Under the pieces are notes generated by a model. The model saw only the letters and a program-made list of their open reading frames with translations, was not told the DNA's origin and made no database searches. Both the position numbers and the translations under genes were made by a program. A DNA stretch of 45,869 bases, taken from positions 1-45,869 of the IMG/VR virus record IMGVR_UViG_2721755987_000001; one strand, 5' to 3'. Origin of the DNA: a virus. This document shows positions 8,838 through 45,869 of the stretch, piece after piece (position 1 is the stretch's first letter; every line of letters begins with the position of its first letter).

Positions 8838-8972
8838 GAGCGGAAGGGGATCTGCCTACGGAGAGGGCTGTTGCAGGATATTGGTCGGTATGGCGATCGC
8901 GTGATTGCAGGGCTTGAGGCTCAGCTTGGAGCTTACCGGGGGGCTGTAAGGGGTTTTGAATGGGCTATTGTT

Positions 8973-9927: not shown

Positions 9928-9930
9928 CCC

Positions 9931-11879: not shown

Positions 11880-11992
11880 CCTTCATCTCTCAGCCCTTAC
11901 CCTTTTCTGGGTTCCCCACACAAAACTGCACTTTTGTGCAGCGCAGTATGGCAAGGGCAAAAAACTAGGATCAGGGGAGGAGGGATTTCAAG

Positions 11993-12382: not shown

Positions 12383-12479
12383 AGCTTTGATGAACCTCAT
12401 CAAAGATCCGTACTTCTCCGAACACCGAACCTGTCAACCTTCGCCAGCATGGGATCAGGAGAGCTGACTGGTCGAAAAT

Positions 12480-24560: not shown

Positions 24561-24655
24561 GTTTGTAGGAACGCTGATGGCGATCGCGCAATGCGCCCGC
24601 CCACAGGCAATGCCGGTTGGGGCGACAAAAAACTACTCTCCAATCAGCAAGAACA

Positions 24656-25633
24656 ATGCCTGCAACAAAATTAGCTGACATTCTAATTCCGGAAATTTGG
24701 GTGCCTTACATGACTATCCGCACCAAAGAGCTATCCGCTCTCTGGTCGGCTGGCATCCTCGACCAGAACGAACAGTACGATCGCCTCGCGGCGGGCGGTG
24801 GCAGCACGGTGCAGATGCCTTTCTTCCAAGATCTAACGGGCAATTCTGAGGTGCTTAGCGACGCAGCCAGCTTGACGATTGGGAAGATTACAGCCACCAA
24901 AGACGTTGCTCACATCCACTACCGAGGCAAGGCCTGGGGCGCGAATGATCTGGCAAAGGCTCTCTCTGGGGCTGACCCGATGGCGGCGATCGCTGACTTG
25001 GTTGCCACTTGGTGGGCACGCGATTTTCAGAAGACACTGCTGTCCAGCCTGAAGGGGATTTTCACCACCACGCTTGCCAGCACTCACGTTCTGGATGTTT
25101 CGATCGCCGATGGCAACGCCGCAACGGCTGCAAACAAAGTCAGCTCTGACAACGTGATCAGCGCCTTCGACAGGCTGGGCGATGCCTCGGCAGACCTGAC
25201 GGCGATCGCCATGCACAGCGCGATCTATCACAACCTGCTGAAGCAAGATGTGATCGAATTCGAGCAGCCATCTGAGCAGGGACAGCCGATTCAGCGCTAC
25301 CTGGGCCGCCGAGTCATCGTCGATGACTCACTGCCCAAGGTGGCAGGCGCAACCAGTGGTTTTGTCTACACCACCTACCTGTTCGGACAGGGGGCGATCG
25401 CCTTCGGCGAGGGCAATCCTGATGAGCCAGTGGAAATGGATCGCGACATCCTGGCTGGCGAGTCCTACCTGGTGAATCGTCGCCACTTCATCCTGCACCC
25501 CAAGGGCGTGAAGTTCACCGGCACGCCCGCTGGTGTCTCTCCCACTAATGCCGAGCTGGAAACCGGCGCGAGCTGGAGCCGTGTTTATGAGATCAAGAAT
25601 GTCCCAATAGTTGCGCTCAGGACAAATGGCTAG
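24656..25633 (+). CDS. Major capsid protein
   Basis: Track ORF 24617 trimmed to ATG 24656 (MPATKLADILIPEIW). 325 aa. Called from its position after the scaffold gene and HK97-fold-type sequence character. Confidence 0.7.
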   Translation: MPATKLADILIPEIWVPYMTIRTKELSALWSAGILDQNEQYDRLAAGGGSTVQMPFFQDLTGNSEVLSDAASLTIGKITATKDVAHIHYRGKAWGANDLAKALSGADPMAAIADLVATWWARDFQKTLLSSLKGIFTTTLASTHVLDVSIADGNAATAANKVSSDNVISAFDRLGDASADLTAIAMHSAIYHNLLKQDVIEFEQPSEQGQPIQRYLGRRVIVDDSLPKVAGATSGFVYTTYLFGQGAIAFGEGNPDEPVEMDRDILAGESYLVNRRHFILHPKGVKFTGTPAGVSPTNAELETGASWSRVYEIKNVPIVALRTNG

Positions 25634-27914: not shown

Positions 27915-30900
27915 ATGGCTGGATCGGTAGAACTTAGCGTTAGCCTCTCACTTGCTCAACTACTGAAGGATGCGGCCCGCGCCTCCCAAGTGATTAAGCA
28001 GCAGCTCAAGGATCAAGAGATTAAGGTCAACCTCAAGACCGAGGCGGGCGGGATTGCGGGGCTGGCCCGGACGCTGAAGAGCACCTATGGCGAGGCGCAG
28101 CAGTTTGCTAAGTCGCTGGGGCTGACGGGGGATCAGGCAACGGCGGCGATCGCCAGGGTTCGCGAACTCGATGCCGTCAGCGCGACCACGGCAGAAAAAT
28201 TCAAAGCGCTGAAGAACGAATTTGGCTTGACCGCCGTTCAAATGAACCAGGTGATCAAGGCTGCCAAAGCCGTTGAAGAGCAGTTCAACGCCCAAGCGAA
28301 AGCGGCGCAGAACAATAGCCAGCAGGTTGTGAACTTGGCGCGATCGCTCAATACGAGTTTTACGAGCGCAGAGAAATATGCGTCGGGATTGGGGCTGACG
28401 GCTCAGAAGGCAAATGAGGCGATCGCCAAGCTGCGCGATCTGGACAAAGCCGGTGCAACCAACGCCGAAAAGTTTCGTGTCCTCAGCAAAGAGTTGGGCG
28501 TGACCAGCCAGCAGTTCGAGGTGCTGAACAAATCAGCAGCTCAGACCACCGAAGGGCTGACGGCAGTGGCGGCGGGTGCAGGGGCGGTTAGTGCAGCCGT
28601 CAGCGCTGCCTTCGTGAAAGGCACACAGGATTTTATTGCCTTTGATAGCGCAGTGCGACAGTCGGGCGTGATCAGCGGCTCGACGGGCACACCGCAACTC
28701 CAAGCGCTGAGAGAAGAGGTAGAGCGCCTGGGCATTGTCACGTCCAAAGCTCCGGCTGAGGTGGCAAAAATGAGCGTCAGCCTCAGCCGCGCTGGCTTCA
28801 CGGCTGAAGAATCAGCAGCCTCGCTAGAGGCGATTGTGCGGGCTGCTGAGGGGACTGGGGAAGCGGTTGAGGTGGTAGGCGATATCGTCGCCAAGACCTA
28901 CCGCTCGTTTCAGAAGGAGTTTGAAGCAGCGGGTACGGGCGTGAGAGATGCCTCGAACCAGATTGCTGATGCGCTGGTCGCAACGGCCAATAACACGAAC
29001 ACCTCGGTTGTTACTCTCGGCGAATCGCTGAAGTACGTCTCAGCTCAGGCTGCTGCCAGCAATCAGCCGATGGAGGATGTGCTTGTCTTGTTGGGATTGT
29101 TGGGTGACGCGGGCATTCAGGGCAGCCAAGCAGGTACAAACCTGGCCCAGGCATTGGAGAGGCTCAAGTTGGCGAGTGCAGGAGCTGAGTCAGAGTTCTC
29201 TGGGCTTCTAAAAGGCAGCGCAAAGGCTACTTCTGCCTTCAATGCAATCGGTGCCGAGGTTCGCAATGCCGACGGCACGATGAAGAGTGTGCTTGAGATT
29301 CTGCCTGTAATGCAAGAGAAGCTGAATTCGCTAGACAGCCAGGCAGATAAAGACATCCTGATGAAGGCGTTGTTTGGCGTGGAGGGCGGGCGCGCTTTCC
29401 AGGTGCTGCTAAACACGACCCCAGACCGGATCGACCTGGTGACAAAGAAAATCTATGAGTCTGAGGGCGCGGCGATCGCCTCCGGCAAGGCATTGAACCA
29501 GGGGCTAGGCGGGGCACTCAACCTGTTTGGTGGATCGCTGGAAACCGTCAGTACCAAGTTTGGTGAATTCATCGCGGTCGGCTTGGAGCCGGCCGTGACC
29601 GCCGCCACAAACCTGCTCAACACGTTTTTGGGTGCGCCGCCCATCGTGCAGAAGCTGATCATCGGCGCGACGGCCCTGACGGGTGCATTTAGCGCAGCCG
29701 TGGCGATCATCACCACCTACAAGCTGCTGAATATCCAGCTTGTAGCCACGCAGGCAGCTCAGACTGCGGCCATGATTGCCAGCGCGATCGCCTCCAAGGG
29801 CGCGGCGGCGGCTCAACTGCTGTTCAACACGCAGATCACGGCGACCAACCTCCAGCTTGTGGCGTTGCGGGCGGGCATTCTGGCTGCTGCTGTTGCCAAG
29901 AAGGCTTATGCAGTTGCCACGGGTGGCGCAGTTGTGGCAACCAAGGGGCTGCTGGTGGCGCTGGCTGGTGTGGCTCCGCTGCTAGCGGCGATTGCTGCTG
30001 GTATTGCAGCGATCAAATTCGCCCAATTTGCCAACGATTTGCGGCGGGCAAACGAATCAATCGACGAATTTAGCCAGCGAGTTGCAACGAGTGGCGACGA
30101 GGCGATCGCCGCCGCTGGCAGAACCAAGGCAGCAGCCGAAAAGCTCAATCAGGCACGGACAGAGGGACGCAAACTGACAGAGCAAGAAATCGCCGACGCT
30201 AGGAACCTGCTGAAGGCGAACCAGCAGCGACTGCAAGGGCTGCAAGACGAACTGAAAGCAGCCGAAAGCATCACCACCGCCAACGACGAACAGGCCCGGA
30301 GCAAGGCAGCGCTGATCCAAAACCTGCAAACCTCAATTGGTGCGCTGGAAAGCCAGAACCAAAAGCTGAATGAGGCGGTAGCGGCGCACAATGCTGCGGG
30401 CGCTGCTGCTGAAGAGCAAGGCAAAAAAACCAAGGAAGCGGCCAATGCGGTAAAGCAGGCAATCGCCTCCTACGAGGCCCTGACGGCAGAGCTTGAGAGC
30501 CAGGATCAGACAGCCAGGACAAGCATCACCGAGGATCTGGCAAAGGGGCTAATCAGCGAAAAACAAGCCCAGCAAGCGTTCCTAGACCAAGAGAAAGCCT
30601 TCAACCAGCAGCGCCTGAACGAGGCTGAAAGGTTCGCGGCTGAGCTGAAAGAGCTGCGTAGCGTCACCACCGATCCGAAGGAGCTTGAGGAGCTAAACAA
30701 ACGGATTCTTGATGCAGATAAAACTGTGGCGGATGCGCGGCTGGCGATCGCCGAAACCGCCCTGAAAGAACGTGAGCAGGCGGAGAAAGACGCGCTAGAG
30801 CGCATCGAGGCAGCAAACCGCGAGAGCGAGGCGCGGATCTCCGAAAGCCAGCGATCGCGGGTGCTGGCAGTACGCCAAGCTCAGCTTGACGGCGTGAAGA

Positions 30901-32162
30901 CGGCAGAGCAGGCAGAGCGGGCGATCGCCCAAATCGAGCAAGACGGCATTGCCCAGCGGGTCGCTCAAAAGCAGCAGGAGCTAGCTCAGGTGCGACAGCT
31001 CCGGCAACAGGGGACGCTGAGCGCCGAGGAAGCCCGCGATCGCGAGCTATCGCTGAATGAGGAGATTGGGCAGCTTAACCTCCAACGGATCGAGAAAGAG
31101 ATTGAGGCACAGGAAAAGGCGCGTCAGGCAGCGCTGAAGGCGGCGGAGGATCAGAAGAAAGCAGCAATTGAGGCGATCGAAGCGGCTGGCAACGCTGCTA
31201 AAAACGTGCTTCAGTCTGGGCAGATTGAGTTGGATATTGCTTCGAAGTCCAACAGTGCTGAGTCTGGGCTATTGGCTGCACAATTGGAGCAGCAGCGGGC
31301 GATCGCCGAAGTGGAGCAAGTGCGCCTGAATGGGGCGATCGAACGGGCTAAGCTGGCAGGTGACGACGTACTTGCTGAGCGGCTCAAACTGAAGCAAGTG
31401 CGTGCACAACAGGCAGCACTGGAGCAACAGTTTCAGATTGAGCAACAGCAGCTCACGCTGTCTCAGCAGCAGCGGGCGATCGAGCTAGAACGCCAAAAGA
31501 TTGCGGCTGAAATTGCGGCAATTGAGGCAGAGGTAGCGGTACAGAAGGCGATCGCCAATGGCGCGAGTGAGGCTGAGATCAACAACCTGCAAACGATTCT
31601 GGGATTGCGGCAAAAACAGGTGAAACAGGCGCAAGCTGCTGAGGCACAGCAGGATCGGCTAAACCAGCTAGAGTCTGAAACACTGGCAGCACGGCAGGAA
31701 TCGCGGCGCATTCAGGGTCAAACGGCGATCGCCCAACAGGAGGCAGCAATCAAAAACGCGCAGAAGCAGCGGGCTGAAGGTCGGCCTAGCCAGGAAGATG
31801 GGGGCGATCGCCCTTCTAGACCCCGTGGCCCCAGTGCCGAGGAACTGGAGAAGCTGCGAATCGAGCAAGGTCTGAGAAACGGCTTCAATGCGGCCGGGTC
31901 ACCCCTACGACAGCTCAAGAGCAAGATGCCCGGTGTGCAGGCTCCAAATTTGAGTCCGGTTACTGATTTGAGCGGGCTGGGCACGGTATTGCAAGAGGGC
32001 AACGGGCTAGTTATTCGCAAGCTGGATGAGCTGAAGGCGGCAATCACGCAGCTTGCCAATACGCCGCGCTGCGTGAGCGTGAGCGCTCCTGATCCAGTGG
32101 GCGCGGTCGGGCAAGTGCTGGCGGATATCAATCGCCAAAACTTTAGGAGATCCAAGCTATGA
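27915..32162 (+). CDS. Tail tape measure protein (1415 aa)
   Basis: TP901-type core (ALREEVERLGIVTSKAPAEVAKMSVSLSRAGFTAEESAASLEAIVRAAEGTGE...), hydrophobic central segments and a very long Q/A/E coiled coil. Confidence 0.9.
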   Translation: MAGSVELSVSLSLAQLLKDAARASQVIKQQLKDQEIKVNLKTEAGGIAGLARTLKSTYGEAQQFAKSLGLTGDQATAAIARVRELDAVSATTAEKFKALKNEFGLTAVQMNQVIKAAKAVEEQFNAQAKAAQNNSQQVVNLARSLNTSFTSAEKYASGLGLTAQKANEAIAKLRDLDKAGATNAEKFRVLSKELGVTSQQFEVLNKSAAQTTEGLTAVAAGAGAVSAAVSAAFVKGTQDFIAFDSAVRQSGVISGSTGTPQLQALREEVERLGIVTSKAPAEVAKMSVSLSRAGFTAEESAASLEAIVRAAEGTGEAVEVVGDIVAKTYRSFQKEFEAAGTGVRDASNQIADALVATANNTNTSVVTLGESLKYVSAQAAASNQPMEDVLVLLGLLGDAGIQGSQAGTNLAQALERLKLASAGAESEFSGLLKGSAKATSAFNAIGAEVRNADGTMKSVLEILPVMQEKLNSLDSQADKDILMKALFGVEGGRAFQVLLNTTPDRIDLVTKKIYESEGAAIASGKALNQGLGGALNLFGGSLETVSTKFGEFIAVGLEPAVTAATNLLNTFLGAPPIVQKLIIGATALTGAFSAAVAIITTYKLLNIQLVATQAAQTAAMIASAIASKGAAAAQLLFNTQITATNLQLVALRAGILAAAVAKKAYAVATGGAVVATKGLLVALAGVAPLLAAIAAGIAAIKFAQFANDLRRANESIDEFSQRVATSGDEAIAAAGRTKAAAEKLNQARTEGRKLTEQEIADARNLLKANQQRLQGLQDELKAAESITTANDEQARSKAALIQNLQTSIGALESQNQKLNEAVAAHNAAGAAAEEQGKKTKEAANAVKQAIASYEALTAELESQDQTARTSITEDLAKGLISEKQAQQAFLDQEKAFNQQRLNEAERFAAELKELRSVTTDPKELEELNKRILDADKTVADARLAIAETALKEREQAEKDALERIEAANRESEARISESQRSRVLAVRQAQLDGVKTAEQAERAIAQIEQDGIAQRVAQKQQELAQVRQLRQQGTLSAEEARDRELSLNEEIGQLNLQRIEKEIEAQEKARQAALKAAEDQKKAAIEAIEAAGNAAKNVLQSGQIELDIASKSNSAESGLLAAQLEQQRAIAEVEQVRLNGAIERAKLAGDDVLAERLKLKQVRAQQAALEQQFQIEQQQLTLSQQQRAIELERQKIAAEIAAIEAEVAVQKAIANGASEAEINNLQTILGLRQKQVKQAQAAEAQQDRLNQLESETLAARQESRRIQGQTAIAQQEAAIKNAQKQRAEGRPSQEDGGDRPSRPRGPSAEELEKLRIEQGLRNGFNAAGSPLRQLKSKMPGVQAPNLSPVTDLSGLGTVLQEGNGLVIRKLDELKAAITQLANTPRCVSVSAPDPVGAVGQVLADINRQNFRRSKL

Positions 32163-32644: not shown

Positions 32645-32669
32645 GCTTGATTCGATAGGCAATAAAAAA

Positions 32670-32696
32670 CCCTGGATTTCTGTCCAGGGTTTTTTT
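32670..32696. terminator. Bidirectional Rho-independent terminator
   Basis: AAAAAA-CCCTGGA-TTTCTG-TCCAGGG-TTTTTTT. Confidence 0.85.
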
Positions 32697-32909: not shown

Positions 32910-33155
32910 TCATTCCTCATCTCCGCTAAGCCACTCAGTTTCAAGCTCTTCTAGCGTGATGCCGCGATACCTGGCGATCGCTTCCATTTCCTTTTGGATT
33001 TCTGCCCAGTTAGCCTCAATCCTGTTTTGGATGATGTTTGCTCCTAGCGTGGCTCGGTTGGTGCCTTTGAGCTTTGCCCAAAGCAGTAATTTTCTGTGAT
33101 ACCAGTCCGGTAACGAAACTCCAAAGCGCACCATTGCCATCAAGTCCATAAACAT
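32910..33155 (-). CDS. Ribbon-helix-helix (CopG/Arc-like) DNA-binding protein
   Basis: VRFGVSLPDWYHRKLLLWAKLKGTNRATLGANIIQNRIE has the beta-strand/helix/helix pattern of RHH regulators. Several alternative Met starts exist. Confidence 0.6.
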   Translation of the reverse strand: MFMDLMAMVRFGVSLPDWYHRKLLLWAKLKGTNRATLGANIIQNRIEANWAEIQKEMEAIARYRGITLEELETEWLSGDEE

Positions 33156-33294: not shown

Positions 33295-34011
33295 ATGACA
33301 GCACTGCCAAACAAAGGATTTGCAAGGAGCTTGAAGATTGTGAGCCAAGAATCTACACCCAGTGACAAAAACGGTGACAACCCGATGACGCTGGTGACGG
33401 TTTTTGATGACGATGACGCGACTGATTACAAGTGGAGCGAGGTGCGCGATCGCCTCTCGCTGACCAGCAACGTGGCAAACGCCCGCTGGATGCCCGAAAA
33501 GCTACTCCCTCTATTCCGAAATCTGAAAGCCCCAGACCTGCTCACAGACAAGGGTAGACCGACCCGCTTCGGCGCGCAGATGTTAGCCCGCTACAAGGCT
33601 TTCTGCGTGGATCAGGCGGGCGATTACGAGAGCTTCTGCGAGCTGGTTAGAAAACATTTTGGTGACGGAGTTGGTGGCGGCGCAAAAGCTGTTCAGGTCG
33701 AAGTTCTGGGATTTGGTGACGGAGTTGGTGACGGCGGTGACGGCACGTTGTCACCGTTTTCGGCGCAACAGCAGGAAATCGATGACAAGGCAGACGACCT
33801 GCTGGGAAAGATGGTGCGTGCTAGGCAGGCGAAGCAGGAAGCCGACGCGGCGATCGCCAAGCTCGACGGCATGAATCAGAAGTCCTGGGAGCAAGAGGTG
33901 ATCGAAGACGAGCTGGCAAAGTTCGAGGAAGAGCAGCGCCGAAAGAAGGCAGAGGCGGAACTGCGCCTGAAAGTGCGGCAAATGCTGGAGGGAAACGGCG
34001 GTGGCGAGTAG
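33295..34011 (+). CDS. Hypothetical protein (238 aa) with G/D/V repeat and coiled-coil C-terminus
   Basis: ATG ORF, first gene of a long + strand operon. An in-frame second ATG at 33385 is preceded by the same 15-mer as the first. Confidence 0.55.
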   Translation: MTALPNKGFARSLKIVSQESTPSDKNGDNPMTLVTVFDDDDATDYKWSEVRDRLSLTSNVANARWMPEKLLPLFRNLKAPDLLTDKGRPTRFGAQMLARYKAFCVDQAGDYESFCELVRKHFGDGVGGGAKAVQVEVLGFGDGVGDGGDGTLSPFSAQQQEIDDKADDLLGKMVRARQAKQEADAAIAKLDGMNQKSWEQEVIEDELAKFEEEQRRKKAEAELRLKVRQMLEGNGGGE

Positions 34012-34104: not shown

Positions 34105-34383
34105 ATGCTTGACAAAATCACAGAGCTAAAAACCATTCAGAGCAAAGACCTGTGGCAGCAATGCCCCAATCCAGATTGCAGCGATGGCGAGGTTCCGAAC
34201 CCAGCCTGGGTTCACACCCGCGCGGCTGGGTTCGACTGGGAGAATTACGATTTTCAAGCCTTGCAAAGGCGTGTCGGGCCTGAGTTTGAGACTTGCCCTG
34301 ATTGTGGCGGCAGGGGAGAAGTCCTAACTGAACTGGGGCAGGCTCTCAAGCATCTTGCCCGCCTAATTGAGTCTGTTCGCTGA
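34105..34383 (+). CDS. Hypothetical zinc-ribbon protein (92 aa)
   Basis: CPNPDC...CPDCGGRG (two CxxC pairs). AGGAGAAAAATACC precedes the ATG. Confidence 0.55.
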   Translation: MLDKITELKTIQSKDLWQQCPNPDCSDGEVPNPAWVHTRAAGFDWENYDFQALQRRVGPEFETCPDCGGRGEVLTELGQALKHLARLIESVR

Positions 34384-34469
34384 CCAAAAGAGCGATCGCC
34401 CCAAGCCTCTCACAGCAAGTGGCCAAGGAAACCAGCAACTCGCACTATTCGGATTGGAGGAAACTCATC

Positions 34470-34637
34470 ATGGTCTACACGTTTCGAGCCGAAACCGCTG
34501 AGGCAGCCCAGCACGTAAGGGCGATCGCTCTGAAAGCTGCCAAAACCCTCGACCAGTGGCAAGACGGCGACGCATGGTGGCTCAAGGTTTGGACAGATGA
34601 CCGAGAGCTACCTTGGATCAGGCGATCGCCCACCTAG
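34470..34637 (+). CDS. Hypothetical small protein (55 aa)
   Basis: Track ORF 34419 (GTG) trimmed to ATG 34470, which has GGAGG 9 nt upstream. Confidence 0.4.
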   Translation: MVYTFRAETAEAAQHVRAIALKAAKTLDQWQDGDAWWLKVWTDDRELPWIRRSPT

Positions 34638-34780
34638 ACGAGATCGAGGCTCAGATCCCTGGACTATCCAGGGCTGATGCAGTGCAACTTATCCGCGACT
34701 TTGCCGTGCAGAGCGATCGCCTCCACCTGCTGTCCGATAAATTCGTTCTGCTTGCTGAACGGCTCGGCGAGGACGAATAG
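34613..34780 (+). CDS. Hypothetical small helical protein (55 aa, TTG start; below track cutoff)
   Basis: Own translation: LDQAIAHLDEIEAQIPGLSRADAVQLIRDFAVQSDRLHLLSDKFVLLAERLGEDE. Fills an otherwise empty gap. The start is uncertain. Confidence 0.3.
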   Translation: MDQAIAHLDEIEAQIPGLSRADAVQLIRDFAVQSDRLHLLSDKFVLLAERLGEDE

Positions 34781-34884: not shown

Positions 34885-35010
34885 ATGATGAAGCTTTTGA
34901 TCTTTTGCCTCTGCCTGACCGTGTTGCTATCCTGCGACCCGACCGATATGGGTTGGGTCAGTTCAACCTTGCTTACGGAGATGACTTATGAACACTCACC
35001 TACTCGGTAG
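34885..35010 (+). CDS. Small lipoprotein (41 aa; below track cutoff)
   Basis: Own translation: MMKLLIFCLCLTVLLSCDPTDMGWVSSTLLTEMTYEHSPTR. Lipobox-like LLSC and a strong RBS GGAAGGAGG. Confidence 0.55.
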   Translation: MMKLLIFCLCLTVLLSCDPTDMGWVSSTLLTEMTYEHSPTR

Positions 35011-35359
35011 CGCCCTTGGAGCGCTGATCACCGCTGCTGCTGTTATTCCGCCCGATGCCCTTGCGCCAGAGGTTTCAGCCGACCCCACCCCGTCGCCGTC
35101 GGCGCTCGGAATGGTCGAAATCGTGCCCGGCAACGGGTTCTATTGGCTGCGAGGCTACAGCTACGCGCCTGGGCAACCGCCGCAGCTTCCCCCCGTTCCC
35201 GTCGGCGCGGCTGGTGTGGTCTACGATGCGACCGGGCGCTGCATTGGTCGATTTGAGGCGCAACAGTTTGTTTTCCTGGATGCCGATTCGGTGCAGTGCG
35301 TCGGTATCCCAACCGCGCCGCCGGTCGTGTACCAATTCGCATCGGGAGAGCAGGGTTAA
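34988..35359 (+). CDS. Secreted/periplasmic protein (123 aa)
   Basis: Signal-peptide-like MNTHLLGSALGALITAAAVIPPDALA. Overlaps the lipoprotein ORF out of frame. Confidence 0.55.
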   Translation: MNTHLLGSALGALITAAAVIPPDALAPEVSADPTPSPSALGMVEIVPGNGFYWLRGYSYAPGQPPQLPPVPVGAAGVVYDATGRCIGRFEAQQFVFLDADSVQCVGIPTAPPVVYQFASGEQG

Positions 35360-35508
35360 TGGGGCATTGGCTTTGCGTGGCAGGCTTGACCCTGCTGCTG
35401 TTGTTTGTCTATAGCCCCCGCAACAGCACCAGCCGCCCCTGGCTGGGACTGTTTGGGGCGATCGCCATCGCATCCCTGACCCAAGCCCGGAGGCAAGATC
35501 ATGAGTGA
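35359..35508 (+). CDS. Small two-TM membrane protein (49 aa)
   Basis: Track ORF 35296 trimmed to ATG 35359 (TAATG coupling). Sequence: MGHWLCVAGLTLLLLFVY...WLGLFGAIAIASL. Confidence 0.45.
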   Translation: MGHWLCVAGLTLLLLFVYSPRNSTSRPWLGLFGAIAIASLTQARRQDHE

Positions 35509-36274
35509 CACCCAAGCGACCGAATCCGCCAAAACACCCTCGACCCCACCCAGCAGCCCAGACCGCCGTGAGAGCGTCAGGCAGGCAATGGAGCGGGCTG
35601 CCCAGAGCCGCGCCAGCAAACCGAGCAATACGACCCCAGAGCGCAAACCCAGCAGCCCCATCCGCTCCGATGCCTACCTGGAGAAGCAGGATCGCGGACA
35701 AAAGGCGATCGCCAAAGGAATTGGCACGTTGCACCTGTTTTTGGGGCTGGCGCTGAGCTGGCTTCGCACCTTCTTTCAGCGCTCTATCCTATCGCTTGTA
35801 GCCATGCTCATTCTGTTGATCGGCATGGCGCTGGCGGCGGAATCCTACAGCCTGAGTGCTGGCACTTTGCCCGCTGCTGTGCTGCCAAAGCCGGGGGTTG
35901 CCTGGGGCGCTGCTGCTGAAAACATTCAGGCAATCCTGAACAGCTTTAGCGGCTGGGAATGGTTTCTGCTGGCTTGCACCTGCTTTTTTGCGATCGCCGT
36001 CCAAGCGATTCAATGGGGCAGCATCCGCTATCTCGGAGCGCGTACCCGTGTTGGTTCCACTGGCGGCAAACTTGCCCTCTCTGGCTGGGCGCTGTTGCCA
36101 TTCGTCATCTTTGTCGGCTTCATCTGGTGGCAAGACCTACAGATCGTGAGCGGGCTGTACCTGGCGCAGGGCTTCACCCTTGGCGGCTTGCTGGTGTGGT
36201 TTTGGGCTGCATTCCCTAGCGAGATTGCTGAGGCATTTATTCAACTGCAAAAATCCCTACCTGCTGAGGACTAA
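35501..36274 (+). CDS. Polytopic membrane protein (257 aa, about 5 TM) with S/P-rich N-terminus
   Basis: ATG overlaps the upstream stop. Hydrophobic helices from residue ~85 onwards. Confidence 0.65.
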   Translation: MSDTQATESAKTPSTPPSSPDRRESVRQAMERAAQSRASKPSNTTPERKPSSPIRSDAYLEKQDRGQKAIAKGIGTLHLFLGLALSWLRTFFQRSILSLVAMLILLIGMALAAESYSLSAGTLPAAVLPKPGVAWGAAAENIQAILNSFSGWEWFLLACTCFFAIAVQAIQWGSIRYLGARTRVGSTGGKLALSGWALLPFVIFVGFIWWQDLQIVSGLYLAQGFTLGGLLVWFWAAFPSEIAEAFIQLQKSLPAED

Positions 36275-36302
36275 CTTGGAATTTATTCAGAGGACTAGAG
36301 CG

Positions 36303-37919
36303 ATGGTCTATGCAACTTGGAAAGACGAGCTACAGGCATTTGAGGCCGACTGCGATCGCCTTCGCAAAGCGCGGCGTGAGAGCTTTCCGATCAAAGTGCT
36401 GGGACTAGCGCCCCTGGCTGCAATCCCGCTGATGGGCAGCTTGCCCGGCGGTCGCAGGCTGCTGGCGTTTGCAGGCATGGCGATCAGCGGGGCATCGCTG
36501 TTGCTGGAGCTTGACCGGCAGCGCGACATCTACGGCGGCAACCTGGCGATCGACCTAAATCCGAATAGCGATTACGACAACCTGGCAGGCGCATTCAAGA
36601 CGCGATCGCCCCGGTGGGAAGCACTCGCCTATCTCTACAGCCAGCTTGACCCGGTGAACCTGAAAGACAAGCTAGGGCAGCTCGACGACCCCACGGCTAA
36701 GCGATGCCTCGACCGGATGCTACGCCGGGTGCGCTCTGGGCTAGATGAGATTCGGGCGCTGAATCCGAACAAACCTGCCTACAGCGACATAGTGCTGGAC
36801 ATCACGGGCGAATGGAAAACCGACACCATTAAGATCCTCGACCGTGCGCTATTCAGCGCAGGCGCGGCCACGCTGGAAGATGTGGATCTGAGCGAGGATG
36901 AGGCGCTGGCGGCGCTTGATGATGTGCGTGTCACTGATGAGGCGATCGCCCCCGTCCCCACTCAGCAGCCCTCGACCGTTGCGCTGTTCAACTGGCATGA
37001 TCTCGCAGCGCGACCCGACTTCTATCCTCATCTGCTGCTATTGGGGAAAACTGGCGCGGGCAAAACTCATTTGGCTGAAAAGCTGCTGAGTCTGCTACCG
37101 GGCGATCGCCTGATCATCAGTCCTCACGTCCGCCCGCATGAGTTCCCAGGTGTGCCAAAGGTTGGGATGGGGCGTGACTATGGCGCTATTGCTGAGGCGC
37201 TGGCAGAGCTAGAGCAGGAAATGCAGCAGCGCTACGAACAGTACGCCAAAGGCATCGATGCTGGGCGCTGGCTGAATGTGGTGATTGATGAATACCCGGC
37301 GATCGCTGCCTACTGCAAAAATGCCAGCGGCGTGATTCAAGTCCTGGCCCGCGAGGCTCGTAAGGTGCGGATCAGGCTGCTGATCCTCAGCCAAGGCGCG
37401 GAGGTCAAGACGCTGGGCATCGAGGGACAGGGCAGCTTGCGCGAGTGCTTCACCTTTTGCCGGGGGCGAGGCTTCGTAGAAGACCACGCGCGGCGACTGA
37501 AAGATGAGGCGATCGCCCGGTGGGTTGCCTCGCAGCCCTTCCCCTGGATGGTGGAAGACCAGTGCGCCGACACCTCGACCCTGGCGGCTGTAGAACCTGT
37601 AGAACCTATGTCCAACAGCGGTTCTACACCCCTCGACAGTGAGCCAGAAGATGAGGGTGAAGCGGTAATAGAGCCGCTGATGCTGCCTGGCATCATGCTC
37701 AGCGATGAGGCGACGCGGCTGCTGGTATGGCTCACCCGCAAAGCGCAACAGGGCAAGCTGTCGCACACCCTGCGAGAGATTCAGCAAGGCAAGCCGCTAG
37801 GCAAGACGGCGGCGCATACCGTTGAGGCGTTGCAGCCGGTGATCAGTGAACTGCTGGCTGCTGGGCTGGTAAGCTTCACCGATGGGGCGATCGCGCTCAA
37901 CGGTTTTGTAGAACCGTAG
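36303..37919 (+). CDS. Membrane-anchored FtsK/SpoIIIE/TraB-like P-loop ATPase with C-terminal winged-helix-like domain (538 aa)
   Basis: Track ORF 36180 trimmed to ATG 36303. Two N-terminal hydrophobic helices. Walker A LLLGKTGAGKTH, Walker B-like WLNVVIDEYP, then ARKVRIRLLILSQGAEV. C-terminus: LSHTLREIQQGKPLGKTAAHTVEALQPVISELLAAGLV. Confidence 0.7.
   Translation: MVYATWKDELQAFEADCDRLRKARRESFPIKVLGLAPLAAIPLMGSLPGGRRLLAFAGMAISGASLLLELDRQRDIYGGNLAIDLNPNSDYDNLAGAFKTRSPRWEALAYLYSQLDPVNLKDKLGQLDDPTAKRCLDRMLRRVRSGLDEIRALNPNKPAYSDIVLDITGEWKTDTIKILDRALFSAGAATLEDVDLSEDEALAALDDVRVTDEAIAPVPTQQPSTVALFNWHDLAARPDFYPHLLLLGKTGAGKTHLAEKLLSLLPGDRLIISPHVRPHEFPGVPKVGMGRDYGAIAEALAELEQEMQQRYEQYAKGIDAGRWLNVVIDEYPAIAAYCKNASGVIQVLAREARKVRIRLLILSQGAEVKTLGIEGQGSLRECFTFCRGRGFVEDHARRLKDEAIARWVASQPFPWMVEDQCADTSTLAAVEPVEPMSNSGSTPLDSEPEDEGEAVIEPLMLPGIMLSDEATRLLVWLTRKAQQGKLSHTLREIQQGKPLGKTAAHTVEALQPVISELLAAGLVSFTDGAIALNGFVEP
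37590..37627. repeat. 8-mer cluster 1: GTAGAACC x2, GTCCAACA, GGTTCTAC (inside the ATPase gene)
   Basis: Exact copies at 37590..37597, 37599..37606, 37610..37617 (reverse complement of TGTTGGAC) and 37620..37627 (reverse complement of GTAGAACC). Confidence 0.85.
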
Positions 37920-38011
37920 AACCTGTTGGACGTGTTGGACGTGTAGAACCGGGGTAAAACACCCCGGTTTTTAGTGCCCGCGATCGGGTTCTACAGTTCT
38001 ACAAGTTCAAC
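37908..38011. repeat. 8-mer cluster 2: GTAGAACC x3, TGTTGGAC x2, GGTTCTAC plus degenerate copies
   Basis: GTAGAACC at 37908, 37916 and 37943. TGTTGGAC at 37924 and 37933. GGTTCTAC at 37987, AGTTCTAC at 37995 and AGTTCAAC at about 38004. The cluster spans the stop codon and terminator. Confidence 0.85.
37949..37972 (+). terminator. Rho-independent terminator after the ATPase gene
   Basis: CCGGGGT-AAAAC-ACCCCGG followed by TTTTT. Confidence 0.75.
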
Positions 38012-38091
38012 AAGCCGCTTTGTATTTGTCACGGGTTCGCAACACAAGCGCTTAGAAATTGACGAAGGGCGATCGCACTGGTAAATTTTAG

Positions 38092-38426: not shown

Positions 38427-38792
38427 ATGCCCTCAATACACAATCACAAAGGCTGGACGATCTTAGTTTTTGACTTAGCTCTTGACTCTGAAAAAAACTG
38501 GAGCTTCTCTTGCTGCCCAAAATCAGGAGAAGCGCTCAATCCTGGCGAGCTATATGCCAATTCTGAGCTGGCCTTGCAAGCGGCGATCGCCTTCATCGAG
38601 CGGCTTTTGGTGCGCTGCCAAATGGCTGATTTACTGGATTCCTGGCTGGAGCTAGGGCAGATCAGCGCCGAAGAGCATCGGCAGGCCAATGAGCTGCTGA
38701 GCAAACTAGCTACCCTGCTTTCACCTCAGCCACCAGCCGTTCCCAAACCACTTGAGCCACCTTCAAAAAATCCTCCCGATTCAGCGCCCTGA
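38427..38792 (+). CDS. Hypothetical protein (121 aa)
   Basis: ATG ORF. Its 3' end overlaps the convergent repressor gene by 83 nt, so the true end or reality of the gene is uncertain. Confidence 0.4.
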   Translation: MPSIHNHKGWTILVFDLALDSEKNWSFSCCPKSGEALNPGELYANSELALQAAIAFIERLLVRCQMADLLDSWLELGQISAEEHRQANELLSKLATLLSPQPPAVPKPLEPPSKNPPDSAP

Positions 38793-39054
38793 GATCTTGA
38801 ATCAGAGCATCTGTGGAGCTTTGGGGAGGTAGCGGAATATTTTCAAGAAACGCTTCCAGCTCGGCGGGCGTGCGGCCAAGACCCCGTGCAATAGCGCTGC
38901 GTGATTCAGCGCCGGGATAGGTTGTGCCATCTAAATAGCTGGTCACAGAGGTTGGGGACAGATCGAGGCGCTTTGCAAGCTGTCTGCCAGAGAGGTTATG
39001 CGTTTGCATGAAATCCAGCAGTAGTTGCCTTAAGCGTTCTTTTCGACCATCCAT
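38710..39054 (-). CDS. XRE-family HTH repressor (CI-like candidate, 114 aa)
   Basis: LSGRQLAKRLDLSPTSVTSYLDGTTYPGAESRSAIARGLG is a classic HTH_3 pattern. Divergent from a small Cro-like ORF and upstream of the replication genes. Confidence 0.7.
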   Translation of the reverse strand: MDGRKERLRQLLLDFMQTHNLSGRQLAKRLDLSPTSVTSYLDGTTYPGAESRSAIARGLGRTPAELEAFLENIPLPPQSSTDALIQDLRALNREDFLKVAQVVWERLVAEVKAG

Positions 39055-40614: not shown

Positions 40615-41640
40615 ATGTTTGAGCTTTCAAATTACACCCAAGTTCCAAATCAGTTCTTGGACAACATAAATTGTTTCAGCAATGCCGAGTTCAAAGTTAT
40701 GGCCCTAATTTTCAGGGAAACGCTTGGCTATCACAGACAGGTAGCAGAGATACCTAACAAGCTTTTTCAACACAGAACCGGACTGTCGCATCAGGGTGTC
40801 AGGAATGCGATCGCCTCACTGAAGTCGCGGAACTGCATTTTTGAATCGAAGGGGAAGCTGCATAACTCCTACGGAGTTGTCCTTGAGTCGATCAACTCAG
40901 TTGATCAGTCGATCAACTCAGTTGATCAGTCGATCAACTCAGTTGATCAGTCGATCAACTCAGTTGATCAAGCGTCGCCCGAAACCCTTGAAAAATCCTA
41001 TGCTGCAAGCTCCCTAAAGAAAGATCTAAAGAAAGATCTAAATAAACTTAAAGAAAGGCCGGATCCGGAATGCGCGAGAGAAAAATCGCTTCGCTCTTCC
41101 GAACCAGCCAAGCCGACCCAGGGGATAAACGGTGGATCGGAGGTACGGGCTTCGCTGCCAAGCGAGCTAAAGAAACGGGTCGTGCTGAAAAGAGCTGTAG
41201 AGGATCAGGGTTCCGCCGACGCGCCGCCGCCTGCGGAAAACTTTGAGCCGTGGTGGAGTGACCCCGGCTCCCCTGATCAAGAGTTTTTGGAATACCTTCT
41301 GCGGTTCTACCTGCCCACCGTGCCGAGCTACCGAGATACGAGCCTAAACCTCGGACACGCCCGCCTGTGGCTCAGCCGCGCCCGCCACGACGATGGCCGC
41401 CACGAAGCAGCGCAGATCCAGTACCAGTGCTTCCTGGAGTGGAAAGACCGCCAAGCCCCGCAAGCCCCGGCCGCTAGGACTCCCACCTCTGCCAACCCTG
41501 TCCCGCTGCCCGTACCTCTGGCTGCTCGGCTAAGGGGTATGGCGCGCGTGCCCGCGCTCCGATCCCAGGCGATCGCCCGTGCCAGGGAAGCGGGTATCCC
41601 CATCGAACACCTCGGCTTGGCGGAGGTTGATCATGCCTAG
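40615..41640 (+). CDS. Replication initiator, lambda O-like N-terminal domain (341 aa)
   Basis: YTQVPNQFLDNINCFSNAEFKVMALIFRETLGYHRQ...TGLSHQGVRNAIASLKSRN matches the phage replication-O/replisome-organiser pattern. Iterons are embedded in the gene. Confidence 0.7.
   Translation: MFELSNYTQVPNQFLDNINCFSNAEFKVMALIFRETLGYHRQVAEIPNKLFQHRTGLSHQGVRNAIASLKSRNCIFESKGKLHNSYGVVLESINSVDQSINSVDQSINSVDQSINSVDQASPETLEKSYAASSLKKDLKKDLNKLKERPDPECAREKSLRSSEPAKPTQGINGGSEVRASLPSELKKRVVLKRAVEDQGSADAPPPAENFEPWWSDPGSPDQEFLEYLLRFYLPTVPSYRDTSLNLGHARLWLSRARHDDGRHEAAQIQYQCFLEWKDRQAPQAPAARTPTSANPVPLPVPLAARLRGMARVPALRSQAIARAREAGIPIEHLGLAEVDHA
40886..40969. repeat. Origin iterons: 4 perfect tandem 21-bp repeats
   Basis: Unit (AGTCGATCAACTCAGTTGATC) x4, each containing the palindrome ATCAAC-TCA-GTTGAT. 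Encodes (SINSVDQ)x4. Confidence 0.9.
41015..41060. repeat. AT-rich region next to the iterons (candidate DNA-unwinding element)
   Basis: TAAAGAAAGATC x2 (41015..41038), followed by TAAATAAACTTAAAGAAAGG. Confidence 0.55.
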
Positions 41641-42112: not shown

Positions 42113-42523
42113 ATGCCTCTAGAGCGCGACCGATACCCCGCTGAGTGGGAGGCGATCGCCCTCCGAGTAAAGGAAGCAGCCGGCTGGTGCTGTGACCACT
42201 GCGGCCGCCCGTGCCGAAGACCAGGGCAGCGGTGGCTAGATCTCGCCTTTGAGCTTGAAGAAGCGGGGTGGGGACGGGAACTGGAATACCCAGGGCGTTT
42301 CGTTTTGACCTGTGCCCACCTTGACCAAGACCCCAGCAATAACGACCCCTCTAACCTGCGAGCGCTCTGCGCCCCCTGCCACCTTCGCCACGATGCACCC
42401 TACCGGAAGGCAAACGCGCACTCGAAGCGCGAGCGGTGTGGGCAGATCTCGCTCGACATGCTCATAACCCCAGAGCCGGATGGGCATGGGAAAGGTGCGA
42501 TCGCCCCATCACCCGACTCCTAA
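42113..42523 (+). CDS. HNH endonuclease
   Basis: CDHCGRPC...LTCAHLDQDPSNNDPSNLRALCAPCHLRHD gives the Cys4 plus H-N-H arrangement. Confidence 0.8.
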   Translation: MPLERDRYPAEWEAIALRVKEAAGWCCDHCGRPCRRPGQRWLDLAFELEEAGWGRELEYPGRFVLTCAHLDQDPSNNDPSNLRALCAPCHLRHDAPYRKANAHSKRERCGQISLDMLITPEPDGHGKGAIAPSPDS

Positions 42524-44313: not shown

Positions 44314-44664
44314 ATGACCAAGCTCACTTTGGCAGAGCTGCACCAGCGGCTCACAAAGTTGGAAGAGCAGCAGCGCTGGGTGGAGCGCGTGTTGGAAGCC
44401 TACGGCATTCGCGGGCTGTGGCTGTCGCCTGCCAAGGCTGCGCCGCTACTGGGAGTAGGGCGCGATCGCATCATGGCGGAAATTCGCCAGGCTGAAAAAA
44501 TGCGGGCGCTAAGGCAGCAAGGCGACCTGCAATACGGTATTCACTATCGCAACGTGCAAGACCCTGAAGCTGCCGAACCGACCTGGCAAGTTCACGTCGA
44601 GGCGTTTGACGGCGTGCTTCAGATCCCACCAGATGAGCGCCGCCTGCCCATCACCTCTCGATAG
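44314..44664 (+). CDS. Excisionase/RDF-like HTH protein (116 aa)
   Basis: Track ORF trimmed to ATG 44314 (GGGAGAGACTG upstream). WLSPAKAAPLLGVGRDRIMAEIRQAE is a MerR/Xis-type HTH. Lies adjacent and convergent to int, with a 46-nt overlap. Confidence 0.5.
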   Translation: MTKLTLAELHQRLTKLEEQQRWVERVLEAYGIRGLWLSPAKAAPLLGVGRDRIMAEIRQAEKMRALRQQGDLQYGIHYRNVQDPEAAEPTWQVHVEAFDGVLQIPPDERRLPITSR

Positions 44665-45731
44665 ATCTTCAGGTAGGGCTGCTCTCCCCACCAAGCGCGA
44701 TAGGTCGTGAGGTGAACGTCTAGCGAGTGGCCCATCGACTGGGCTAAAAAGTCTGGGCTGAAACCCAGTTCAAACCCGCGACGGGCGTAGGAATGCCTCA
44801 AATCATAGGGATTAAAGCCCAGCTTGAGCTGCCGAAACTTTTGAGACACAGCCATTCCTAGCTGATTGTTATTCCGCCCTTCAATCCTGACGGGTGGCAG
44901 CTCCCAGCTTTGAAAATCCATCTGCCAGCCATCACCGGGCAACGGAAACACGATCCGTTGCCCGGTTTTTGTTTGGTTTGGCACTTCTAATAAAGCTGGA
45001 TCTTCTTGAAGGCGATCGGGAATTGCCAACAGCGCCTCATGCGGGCGCAGCCCATACACAGCCAGCGCTGAATACAGCCACGCCCACCCGCCGCGAAACC
45101 TGCTGGCAGCGGCGGCGATCGCCTCATCAGTTGGCAAGTTGCGCGGGTTCACACTGCGATCGCTGGAATAGCCAGCACCCAGCGCCGTCAGCTCTTGATG
45201 CCCCTCCAACCCCGCAAACTCTGCCAGCCGCCGAAACGCATAGGCATATCCCTTTCGGCTGCGAGTCGCTGGGGCGCTGCGCTCCAAAATCACTCGCTTC
45301 AGCAGCTCCAGGCTGAGGGGTTCCTCCTGTGGTAAGTGATTGAATTTCAGCTCAAAATCTTTGTGCCACGTATTCAGCTTGCTTGGCTCTTGGGACGTGC
45401 GGCTCCAGTGATCCGCCTCGAAGCGCTCCAGCCATTCGCCTACGGTCTGCGCTGGCTTCTGCTTTCCCCTCAGCCACGGCGACCAATCGAATTTCTCTCG
45501 AATAAGCTGGCTTTCGATCTCGTGAGCGATCGCCACTGCCTGATTCAGCCCAGCCGGCGTGGCCGGCTTGCCTGTGGCGATCTCCTGAGATTTGGGGCGG
45601 CTACCAGTTCCGGGCTTGGGTGGTAGCGTGGCCCGCAATGAGAGGCGATCGCCACGACGGCGGATAGACACTAGTTTGAGCTGCTGATTAGCCTGCTCAA
45701 TCCGCTCATCAATTGCCCAAATTTTGCCCAA
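44619..45731 (-). CDS. int: Tyrosine integrase
   Basis: 370 aa. GLRPHEAL, YDLRHSYARRG (H-x-x-R) and MGHSLDVHLTTYRAW (catalytic Tyr). Lies next to attR and the tRNA. Confidence 0.9.
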   Translation of the reverse strand: MGKIWAIDERIEQANQQLKLVSIRRRGDRLSLRATLPPKPGTGSRPKSQEIATGKPATPAGLNQAVAIAHEIESQLIREKFDWSPWLRGKQKPAQTVGEWLERFEADHWSRTSQEPSKLNTWHKDFELKFNHLPQEEPLSLELLKRVILERSAPATRSRKGYAYAFRRLAEFAGLEGHQELTALGAGYSSDRSVNPRNLPTDEAIAAAASRFRGGWAWLYSALAVYGLRPHEALLAIPDRLQEDPALLEVPNQTKTGQRIVFPLPGDGWQMDFQSWELPPVRIEGRNNNQLGMAVSQKFRQLKLGFNPYDLRHSYARRGFELGFSPDFLAQSMGHSLDVHLTTYRAWWGEQPYLKIYREVMGRRRSSGGI

Positions 45732-45812: not shown

Positions 45813-45869
45813 CGGAGAGAGAGGGATTCGAACCCTCGGTACGGCCTAAACCGTACAACAGATTAGCAA
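45813..45869 (-). tRNA. tRNA-Ser(GCU): tRNA-Ser(GCU), 3' portion only (window ends in the anticodon loop)
   Basis: Minus strand reads TTGCTAA (loop, anticodon GCT), TCTGT, a long variable arm GTACGG..CCGTAC, the T arm GAGGG-TTCGAAT-CCCTC, acceptor TCTCTCC and discriminator G. No encoded CCA. Confidence 0.8.
45849..45869. repeat. attR core, 21-bp direct repeat identical to 1..21
   Basis: Covers the tRNA anticodon loop, the 3' anticodon stem and the start of the variable arm. Confidence 0.85.

Follow-up and report, generated by a model that had tools for sequence, protein, structure and literature searches.

A putative DNA-translocation cassette with its own repeat arrays in a temperate cyanosiphovirus and on small mobile elements of filamentous cyanobacteria

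The virus record IMGVR_UViG_2721755987_000001 of IMG/VR, analysed over its full 45,869 nucleotides (the window), is a temperate siphovirus-like element. Between its tail genes and its immunity/replication genes lies an operon that ends in the gene of a membrane-anchored FtsK-like ATPase. The best reading of the sequence is that 34.4-38.0 kb, possibly from 32.7 kb, is a self-contained DNA-translocation cassette acquired by a temperate cyanosiphovirus. From its sequence features and by analogy with known pumps, the cassette appears to encode a sequence-directed double-stranded DNA (dsDNA) translocase with a cis site and Spd-like partner proteins, probably for cell-to-cell spread (rough probability 0.5). 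A first-pass annotation of the window had suggested an FtsK-like pump grafted onto a cyanophage. This view is supported, as FtsK-type proteins are the best match of the ATPase in every test and the module occurs mostly outside tailed phages. The likeness to actinomycete TraB that it drew is strengthened by 8-bp repeats arrayed where the ATPase gene ends, which change together with the winged helix of the protein. The features of the cassette are listed below by position in the window; here and throughout, L numbers denote related loci.

34419-34637, + strand: conserved 72-aa operon gene, 55% identical to a 64-aa gene at the same position in L001
34613-34780, + strand: 55-aa helical protein, conserved operon gene, 66% identical to a 72-aa gene of L036
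34885-35010, + strand: 41-aa open reading frame (ORF), MMKLLIFCLCLTVLLSC..., with hydrophobic N-terminus and LLSC lipobox; ribosome-binding site GGAAGGAGG 11 nt upstream
34988-35359, + strand: 123-aa exported or membrane-anchored protein with signal-like N-terminus (hydrophobic residues 5-21) and two Cys in the C-terminal half
35359-35508, + strand: 49-aa two-helix membrane protein with two hydrophobic stretches, translationally coupled through a TAATG stop/start overlap
35501-36274, + strand: 257-aa integral membrane protein with charged S/P-rich N-terminus, 4-5 transmembrane (TM) helices and invariant TFFQRS, PKPG and FPSE motifs
36303-37919, + strand: 538-aa membrane-anchored FtsK-like ATPase, from profile, structure and motif evidence
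37590-37627, no strand: repeat cluster 1, GTAGAACC twice direct and once inverted, in the linker-coding region (encodes VEPVEP)
37906-38012, no strand: repeat cluster 2, a candidate cis-acting locus, with arrays flanking the operon terminator

Judged by motifs, profiles and a structural model, the 538-aa protein is a P-loop ATPase of the FtsK-like kind that is anchored in the cytoplasmic membrane by its N-terminal helical hairpin and ends in a winged helix. It consists of a TM hairpin (residues 28-70, hydrophobic helices at 28-44 and 53-70), a helical domain (90-210), a RecA-like motor (225-425), a disordered linker (430-460) and the winged helix (467-532). Its start is placed at 36303 because the homologues all begin MVYATWKDE. 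The motifs are Walker A GKTGAGKT, Walker B VVIDE and REARKVRIRLLILSQG. They follow the order of FtsK, with Walker A and Walker B preceding a downstream R...(L/I)ILATQ/LSQG motif. The Walker A Lys, the Walker B DE, the conserved Arg residues and the Gln of LSQG are invariant or near-invariant in 31-33 homologues, and one or two N-terminal hydrophobic helices are present in 30 of 30. FtsK_SpoIIIE (PF01580) is the top Pfam family for the window protein (E 5.5e-5) and is matched weakly by 20 of 31 family members; precomputed PF01580 matches exist for P0005 (marked faint) and P0022. When a 31-homologue profile was compared with the PDB, the best match was the FtsK motor 2iuu (E 7e-7), aligned from Walker A to the ATQR-like motif, followed by midasin (P-loop only), EccC (1e-4) and, lower down, TcpA (2.5e-3). 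The AlphaFold (AF2) model has a mean predicted local distance difference test score (pLDDT) of 82.3. Its best Foldseek matches in the PDB are the FtsK motor (6t8g/2ius), TcpA (6o1w) and EccC (4nh0), with about 190-220 aligned columns and root-mean-square deviations of 3-5 Å; among these top matches TcpA has the highest target TM-score, 0.42. A broader profile run against 5.8 billion proteins retrieved the protein's own family and then canonical FtsK at about 3e-8. An exhaustive hidden Markov model (HMM) search returned 553 clusters (50% identity) at E <= 1e-30, and the family is therefore sizeable, and unnamed. The nearest plasmid matches outside cyanobacteria are Microbacterium FtsK/SpoIIIE proteins (E ~6e-6).

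The C-terminal 72 residues are modelled with a pLDDT of 89.8 as H-b-H-H-b-b, and all top Foldseek matches are winged helices; the structure matches describe a generic winged helix. The fold assignment rests on AF2 and Foldseek, because the winged-helix profile has no significant sequence match in the PDB; a single family member matches MarR_2. These results agree with the first-pass annotation, which had read the motif order as that of FtsK/SpoIIIE/TraB pumps, with two N-terminal helices and a winged-helix-like tail. It had also named Zot, helicase loaders and terminases as families that might score better; none did, and FtsK-type proteins were the best match in every test run. A weak match to PHROG 2666 (26 bits) had raised the possibility of a packaging terminase. 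This was rejected because a classical TerL is present and most family members lie outside phages. The ATPase is not the packaging motor of the element, which has a TerS/TerL pair at 15602-17595 beside the portal gene.

Sequence and structure comparisons also matched EccC and EssC, and several small helical proteins are encoded upstream. A single-domain EssC/EccC-like ATPase that exports these proteins is nonetheless extremely improbable. The winged helix and its cognate repeats point to DNA as what is moved, Pfam revealed neither a WXG100-like protein nor any other part of a type VII system, and EssC-type ATPases have tandem ATPase domains.

Two side observations concern distant parts of the family. 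In one subfamily (L019-L028, from Phormidium, Phormidesmis, Myxacorys, Leptolyngbya and FACHB-63) a winged-helix-like segment is followed by an acidic-aromatic tail (DDYDF or DDFNW) that recalls the docking tails of single-stranded DNA-binding (SSB-type) proteins. This subfamily is multicopy, with four members in FACHB-63 and three in Phormidium tanganyikae. In L015, the most distant relative on a viral contig, a DUF2637 membrane protein with a possible C-terminal helix-turn-helix (HTH; weak match) is encoded at 8179-8910, directly 5' of a 623-aa ATPase.

The candidate cis site is formed by the repeats at the 3' end of the ATPase gene. The 8-bp sequence GTAGAACC occurs eight times in the window against 0.56 expected, with seven of the copies within 400 bp at the gene's 3' end, and the local 8-mer density was matched in just 3 of 20,000 shuffles. 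Cluster 2 contains, in order, three direct copies of GTAGAACC, two of TGTTGGACG, a hairpin (37947-37972) and the inverted units GGTTCTAC/GTTCTACA/GTTCAACA. The direct copies, at 37908, 37916 and 37943, cross the stop codon, and the inverted copies occupy 37987-38012. The region 37900-38015 folds at -53.9 kcal/mol (z = -6.1); its GC-rich terminator hairpin was seen by folding and is not listed by a consensus terminator scan.

At least nine related loci share this layout of a direct array, a terminator hairpin and an inverted array, together with a second cluster in the sequence that codes for the linker, and each locus has a repeat unit of its own. Two-cluster layouts are built from GTAGAACC in L001, L003 and L036, from TCTGAACC in L029 and L037, from TGTTGGAC in L002/L016 and L017, and from TGTCGAAC in L004. 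L032 (GTCTAGC) and L011 (TGAAACG) have their own arrays just past the stop codon. In most loci with the layout, nearly all copies of the unit in 11-22 kb fall at most 650 bp from the stop codon. More distant family members have other repeat clusters within the gene or a few hundred bp after it. A third GTAGAACC cluster, with direct and inverted copies, lies within the exported-protein gene of L001 (8741-8814) and L003 (8612-8676) and is absent from the window.

The repeats also vary with the protein. For the family members P0003, P0005 and P0006, identity to the window ATPase is 92-95% over the TM hairpin and motor, 78-93% over the helical domain and only 31-38% over the linker and winged helix; their loci carry TCTGAACC. 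These alignments show the repeat and the winged helix changing together as one contiguous 3' segment, a cassette swap. Such covariation is suggestive of recognition, short of proof.

Repeats of this kind could also serve segregation or resolution within the cell. A septum- or membrane-anchored pump would then read its own repeats, as FtsK reads the FtsK-orienting polar sequences (KOPS), and would clear or partition DNA, perhaps feeding an Xer-like recombinase. The closest relatives by sequence and fold are FtsK proper, and the repeats converge on a central point as KOPS do on dif. Many carriers encode a small tyrosine recombinase (the 276-aa int276 in the window, the pDU1 integrase, L030 and L032), and in L004 a ParM-like gene adjoins the module. 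However, very small multicopy plasmids (5.6-6.4 kb) can seldom be expected to depend on an active pump, this reading gives no role to the dedicated exported and multi-TM partners, and no dif-like site was identified between the arrays. The family is, moreover, seen only in filamentous hosts, though unicellular cyanobacteria have plasmids as well. Segregation is judged unlikely.

The membrane features of the envelope proteins encoded with the putative pump were assigned from hydropathy. The five packed + strand ORFs of the first-pass annotation are borne out by the ORF listing, by direct reading and by conservation. All five genes are kept in the same order in related loci and are therefore not chance ORFs. 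Its boundaries of 34885-37919 were too narrow: the conserved unit also includes 34419-34637 and 34613-34780 and extends through the repeats and terminator to 38012. The 41-aa product had been called a lipoprotein. Its ORF and ribosome-binding site are real, and orthologues are recognised by position and sequence in seven loci, but the lipobox Cys is retained in only three of the seven. The lipoprotein label is therefore doubtful, and the product is probably not a conserved lipoprotein. The 123-aa protein has the expected N-terminal hydrophobic stretch, and its ORF shares 23 nt with the preceding one. Orthologues occur in L001-L005, L016, L030 and L031, and genes of equal size occupy the same place in L036 and L037. 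The 49-aa protein, with both the two hydrophobic stretches and the coupling overlap described earlier, has orthologues in L001 and L003, and genes of 50-51 aa stand at its position in L036 and L037.

The gene of the 257-aa protein, for which about five TM helices had been proposed and hydropathy gives four to five, lies directly 5' of the ATPase gene throughout the close subfamily. A word-indexed homology search found only five close relatives of this protein, and an hhalign comparison of its family with the DUF2637 protein of L015 showed no relation. Pfam, PHROGs and NCBIfam yielded no usable match for the four proteins encoded upstream of the ATPase or for the small ORFs at the flanks. In four close relatives a conserved gene of about 52-58 aa (MEDAI.V...EIDILIEALS.YHDVLESEG) is located between the multi-TM and ATPase genes, at L003 9820-9996, L029 777-950, L036 1877-2050 and L037 9209-9367. 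The window is without it, and the two genes are 28 nt apart there.

Relatives of the module reside on cyanobacterial plasmids of 5.6-38 kb, on integrative elements of about 11 kb with an integrase and a primase, and on other phage-like contigs. In Thermoleptolyngbya oregonensis (L001), an element of about 11 kb is flanked by host genes. It encodes an XisA/C-type integrase, a D5_N primase, the same membrane proteins and ATPase, a relaxase and a NikA-like protein. Similar small elements, with an integrase or resolvase and a large primase/helicase or DUF3854 protein, are L002, L003, L030/L031, L032 and L037. In L036, an incomplete contig of 12.5 kb, the module also lies beside a relaxase gene and a NikA-like gene. 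Plasmid-borne members match the family HMM with E 1e-50 to 1e-82. Their carriers include pDU1 (6.4 kb), pCC7120zeta (5.6 kb) and plasmids of Tolypothrix, Calothrix, Moorena, Allocoleopsis, Annamia and Pseudanabaena, and all PLSDB carriers were typed as non-mobilizable by MOB-suite. pDU1/pNOS7524.02 (L033, Nostoc PCC 7524) and pCC7120zeta (L034, PCC 7120) each encode a family member of 377-390 aa, which in pDU1 is the last gene of a small operon. On both plasmids the ATPase gene is the largest one not annotated for replication or recombination, and the records assign it no function.

Among viral sequences, L004 provides a second phage-like context, with P2-type baseplate genes, a sigma factor 41% identical to that of the window and the ParM-like gene. 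IMG/VR contigs with relatives encode lysins, DnaB, antirepressors and a tail-tube initiator. A tblastn search with the window ATPase and a viral-contig relative against 50,697 deposited phage genomes gave no match, and a conserved cassette of characterised cyanophages, an outcome the first-pass annotation had allowed for, was rejected on this ground. The synteny comparison it had proposed places the block mostly outside tailed phages, on small plasmids and integrative elements, which fits a grafted module. Scanning IMG/VR with the ATPase did not hit the prophages L042 and L043, which have a related capsid (L042 also a related terminase), and this makes the module an accessory part of the phage lineage. 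The named hosts of the family are filamentous cyanobacteria, except for one metagenome-assembled genome labelled Obscuribacterales.

Most carriers are without a relaxase. No relaxase was found in the window, L002, L003, L029, L030, L032 or L037, and no type IV secretion system (T4SS) family was found with Pfam and NCBIfam among the window proteins scanned. These absences bear on a further explanation, that the ATPase is a TcpA-like type IV coupling protein (T4CP) that links a relaxase-processed single strand of the element to a conjugative T4SS which the host encodes at another place, so that its carriers are mobilizable. TcpA is among the best structural matches, with the top target TM-score, and cyanobacteria possess a T4SS class peculiar to them, MPF-C (PMC3548315). 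However, relaxases are missing from the seven sequences just named and from the PLSDB plasmids with their non-mobilizable typing, and NCBIfam gives no T4CP match for the window ATPase. Coupling proteins target relaxosome proteins and are normally without a sequence-specific winged helix and cognate repeats at their own gene. A coupling protein is therefore considered improbable.

The closest known parallel to a putative pump with its own cis site is the TraB/clt/Spd system of Streptomyces (pSVH1, pIJ101 and pSG5) and of actinomycete integrative and conjugative elements (AICEs). Both types of translocase have a membrane-associated N-terminus, an FtsK-like motor and a C-terminal winged-helix DNA-recognition domain. 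Both are associated with element-specific 8-bp repeats at or just past the 3' end of the translocase gene, although binding is a prediction for the cyanobacterial repeats. The adjacent operons look alike in arrangement, with genes for small, diverse membrane or exported proteins that have overlapping stop and start codons. The spd genes are likewise diverse, number three to seven per plasmid, form operons with overlapping stop/start codons and include genes for multi-TM proteins, and the Spd proteins are membrane-bound (PMC4447253). Both systems are carried by very small plasmids and by integrative elements made up of an integrase and replication genes. Both occur in multicellular filamentous hosts, and the TraB system needs no relaxase (PMC4447253, PMC3548315).

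There are also clear differences. The hosts here belong to a diderm phylum, the Cyanobacteria, whereas TraB homologues have been reported only in Actinobacteria and TcpA homologues only in Firmicutes (PMC3548315). The cyanobacterial proteins are shorter, at 360-630 aa, whereas the C-terminal domain of TraB is at aa 717-772 (PMC4447253). The partner proteins of the window are without detectable homology to Spd proteins, and none would be expected. Unlike those of clt, the cyanobacterial repeats are set out as inverted arrays on either side of a terminator, and a further cluster lies in the coding region. The module of the window, moreover, lies in a tailed prophage.

FtsK/SpoIIIE, with KOPS and the SpoIIIE recognition sequences (SRS), is the best match of the motor in sequence and structure. 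The shared architecture comprises an N-terminal TM anchor, a linker, a RecA-like motor and a C-terminal winged helix that reads oriented 8-bp motifs, the last being predicted for the window protein. The window ATPase is much shorter, however, is found on mobile elements and is not a host division protein, and its repeats gather at a single locus, whereas KOPS are distributed with polarity along the replicon. TcpA of pCW3 and ConQ share the two N-terminal TM helices and the FtsK-like nucleotide-binding domain, and a relaxase is adjacent in two cyanobacterial relatives. Most carriers, including the window, nevertheless have neither relaxase nor T4SS genes, and TcpA itself is without a C-terminal winged helix and cognate repeats. 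TdtA of Thermus thermophilus ICETh1 is another FtsK-HerA-superfamily ATPase on an integrative element. It is hexameric and pushes dsDNA from the donor independently of a T4SS (PMC5365140). Unlike the window ATPase, TdtA is HerA-like, has no DNA-binding domain, works with the NurA nuclease and a restriction enzyme, and needs recipient competence.

By analogy, the cyanobacterial system would work as TraB/clt/Spd does, and it is similar to FtsK/KOPS. It is assigned to neither group, because its Pfam FtsK score is below threshold, the alpha and gamma domains are missing and its likeness to TraB is one of architecture and layout. Full-text literature searches, whose coverage did not extend to subscription journals, found no such system described in cyanobacteria, pDU1 or pCC7120zeta.

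In the proposed mechanism, the winged helices of an oligomeric, probably hexameric, motor would bind to the arrays in the DNA of the element itself. Once loaded there, the motor would pump the element's dsDNA through the membrane, by a passage that the multi-TM protein and its small envelope partners would form or stabilise. As the most likely biological role, the element would in this way move, without a relaxase, between adjacent cells of the cyanobacterial filament. At the septum, adjacent cells of a filament are separated by only two cytoplasmic membranes and a perforated peptidoglycan. The outer membrane stays out of the septum, which contains nanopores and septal junctions (e.g., PMC10653889). 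Passage would therefore need only the route used by TraB/Spd at hyphal cross-walls. A prophage, plasmid or integrative element could in this way colonise a whole filament without lysis. The most specific form of the proposal, a temperate tailed cyanophage with a working TraB-like conjugation device that, once the phage has lysogenised or replicated in one cell, pumps its dsDNA genome through septa into neighbouring cells, is drawn by analogy; it is tentative, and we consider it somewhat unlikely.

Several observations weigh against transfer by a sequence-directed translocase. The window ATPase scores 23.2 bits against the FtsK_SpoIIIE gathering cut-off of 24 bits. The FtsK alpha (PF17854) and gamma (PF09397) domains were not reported for it or for the family, whereas the true FtsK matches in the search of 5.8 billion proteins carry both. 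None of the upstream proteins has sequence homology to an Spd protein. A PF03432 relaxase gene and a NikA/MobC-like gene adjoin the ATPase gene in the close relatives L001 and L036, and two relatives bear the name 'type IV secretory system conjugative DNA transfer family protein', given by the Prokaryotic Genome Annotation Pipeline (PGAP); both observations fit a coupling protein. The covariation of repeat and winged helix may mean the co-inheritance of one DNA segment, because the two are contiguous. The arrays lie on both sides of a terminator; they might serve in regulation or be the targets of another protein. pDU1 has no exact 8-mer cluster. The pattern of filamentous hosts rests on about 18 named genera and is not phylogenetically corrected.

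The element that carries the putative cassette has the genes of a tailed prophage with its own terminase, in keeping with the first-pass annotation. A head morphogenesis gene is also present among the structural genes. The principal phage features are as follows.

1-21, no strand: left 21-bp attachment (att) core AACCGTACAACAGATTAGCAA, exact copy
15602-16075: TerS
16057-17595: TerL
17629-19143: portal
24617-25633: major capsid
27915-32162: tape measure
38710-39054: HTH repressor-like gene
40615-41640: lambda-O-like initiator, with internal 21-bp iterons
44619-45731, - strand: 370-aa tyrosine integrase (int370), beside the att site; 32-35% identical to XisA/XisC-type integrases of small elements that bear the module
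45849-45869, no strand: right att core, in the 3' half of a tRNA-Ser(GCU)-like gene (- strand, 45813-45866)

The nearest deposited relatives of the portal are those of marine cyanosiphoviruses, at about 40% identity, and the HIP1 sequence (GCGATCGC) is spread across the whole window. Within the initiator gene, 40865-40990 contains three exact and two degenerate copies of the 21-bp iteron AGTCGATCAACTCAGTTGATC and is likely the origin of replication. No third copy of the att core was found in the window with up to three mismatches allowed, nor was a second pair of flanking repeats. With identical 21-nt ends and no third copy, the 45.85 kb therefore represent one integrated (or circularised) element. 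The tRNA gene is missed by ARAGORN because it is truncated at the window end. Rfam reports the region as RF04351 (plastid psbI-rps4 3' untranslated region), a match that is probably the antisense of the plastid trnS region.

The window encodes two tyrosine recombinases. Besides int370, the region 11049-14003, 5' of the terminase genes, encodes a XerC/D-like recombinase (int276), a 251-aa sigma-70-family factor and a 255-aa partner, and resembles a module for a phage-encoded sigma factor. In the related prophage L042, recombinase, sigma factor and terminase are again found together, and L004 has the sigma factor with a gene of about 260 aa. Under a composite history, the module would not truly belong to the phage: a tailed prophage (int276) and a small integrative element (module, replication genes and int370) would have come to share one att pair. 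The small elements L001, L002, L021 and L026 have integrases related to int370, and two of them, the close relatives L001 and L002, have the upstream membrane genes and the full-length ATPase as well. The trio of sigma factor, int276-like recombinase and terminase is kept in L042, which the ATPase scan did not match. However, there are exactly two att cores, none of them internal, and no second flanking repeat. The phage part without the right arm would have no identified replication or immunity genes, and the second phage-like contig, L004, carries the module as well. A composite origin is rather unlikely. It concerns history and is compatible with the functional readings, since a fused element that excises as a unit is still a phage with the module.

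The location of the module could also point to superinfection exclusion or defence, in which a membrane ATPase and its envelope partners would block or expel the incoming DNA of competitors. The module occupies an accessory region between tail and immunity/replication genes, a frequent site of lysogenic-conversion and exclusion genes, and related prophages appear without it. The ATPase also has a weak PADLOC match to mad8 (22 bits). However, no match among 5,027 defence models was significant, and nine neighbouring proteins had no PADLOC match. The recognition repeats, moreover, are on the element's own DNA and not on that of a competitor. A near-sole non-replication function on plasmids of 5.6-6.4 kb fits selfish transfer or maintenance better, and exclusion is quite improbable.

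The region immediately upstream of the cassette contains the following features.

32664-32695, no strand: perfect 13-bp inverted repeat with A-run and T-run flanks (AAAAAACCCTGGA...TCCAGGGTTTTTT), upstream of the operon
32910-33155, - strand: 81-aa ORF with ribbon-helix-helix-like N-terminus (VSLPDWYHRKLLLWAKLKG), divergent from the operon
33295-34011, + strand: 238-aa protein with C-terminal coiled coil, first + strand gene past the terminator; weak PHROG scaffolding match in the coiled coil
34105-34383, + strand: 92-aa protein with two CxxC pairs (zinc-ribbon-like); weak zinc-ribbon/IBR matches only

The hairpin at 32664-32695 is likely a bidirectional terminator that divides the tail genes from the module. 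The 81-aa ORF has no Pfam match; in an alignment of 43 aa it shares 33% identity with the L003 RHH_5 protein. RHH_5 genes occupy the matching position in the small elements L003, L030, L032 and L037, which weakly suggests that this ORF is a candidate regulator. The place of the 238-aa gene in the module is uncertain, as relatives do not keep it. An hhalign comparison of this protein with the first gene product of the small elements, an HTH and coiled-coil protein of about 190 aa, showed no relation.

Other observations concern the phage itself. The 20-nt palindrome TCAGTCCGGAATTCCGGACT is present in five copies (7907, 19110, 27807, 38307 and 43490), mostly at the ends of gene blocks. It was dropped as a recognition site because it is absent from all related loci (35 of 35 compared), and is possibly a phage-specific operator, a terminator or a small dispersed repeat. 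Minus-strand ORFans at 758-6082 and 8973-10860 encode proteins of 428, 233, 151, 967, 249 and 309 aa without Pfam matches. The 967-aa protein is 24% identical to an ORF on the IMG/VR contig L009, and the gene of the 309-aa protein contains a 57-nt internal repeat, while the protein gives a weak match to a major tail protein. This block, opposite to the head-tail module, possibly represents the missing distal tail or fibre genes. In the replication module, an HNH endonuclease gene (42113-42523; PHROG 1571, E 2e-21) is followed by the gene of a 540-aa protein without family matches.

To our knowledge, dsDNA conjugation by a single FtsK-like pump is a textbook process for mycelial Actinobacteria only. 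If the proposed role is correct, relaxase-independent dsDNA conjugation would extend to a second multicellular phylum and, for the first time, to a tailed phage. The predicted protein-DNA code would be swappable, with winged-helix type A paired with GTAGAACC and type B with TCTGAACC, and the hypothesis is therefore directly testable. The presence of such a cassette in tailed prophages would blur the boundary between phages and conjugative elements. The ATPase carried by pDU1 and other widely used plasmids of cyanobacteria, so far unexplained, would acquire a role, and new gene-delivery tools for filamentous cyanobacteria would be suggested. The family would represent the long-missing transfer or spread function of cryptic plasmids, including pDU1 and pCC7120zeta, and of integrative elements in filamentous cyanobacteria. 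Multicellular growth would then have repeatedly selected for the spread of DNA through septa by mobile elements.

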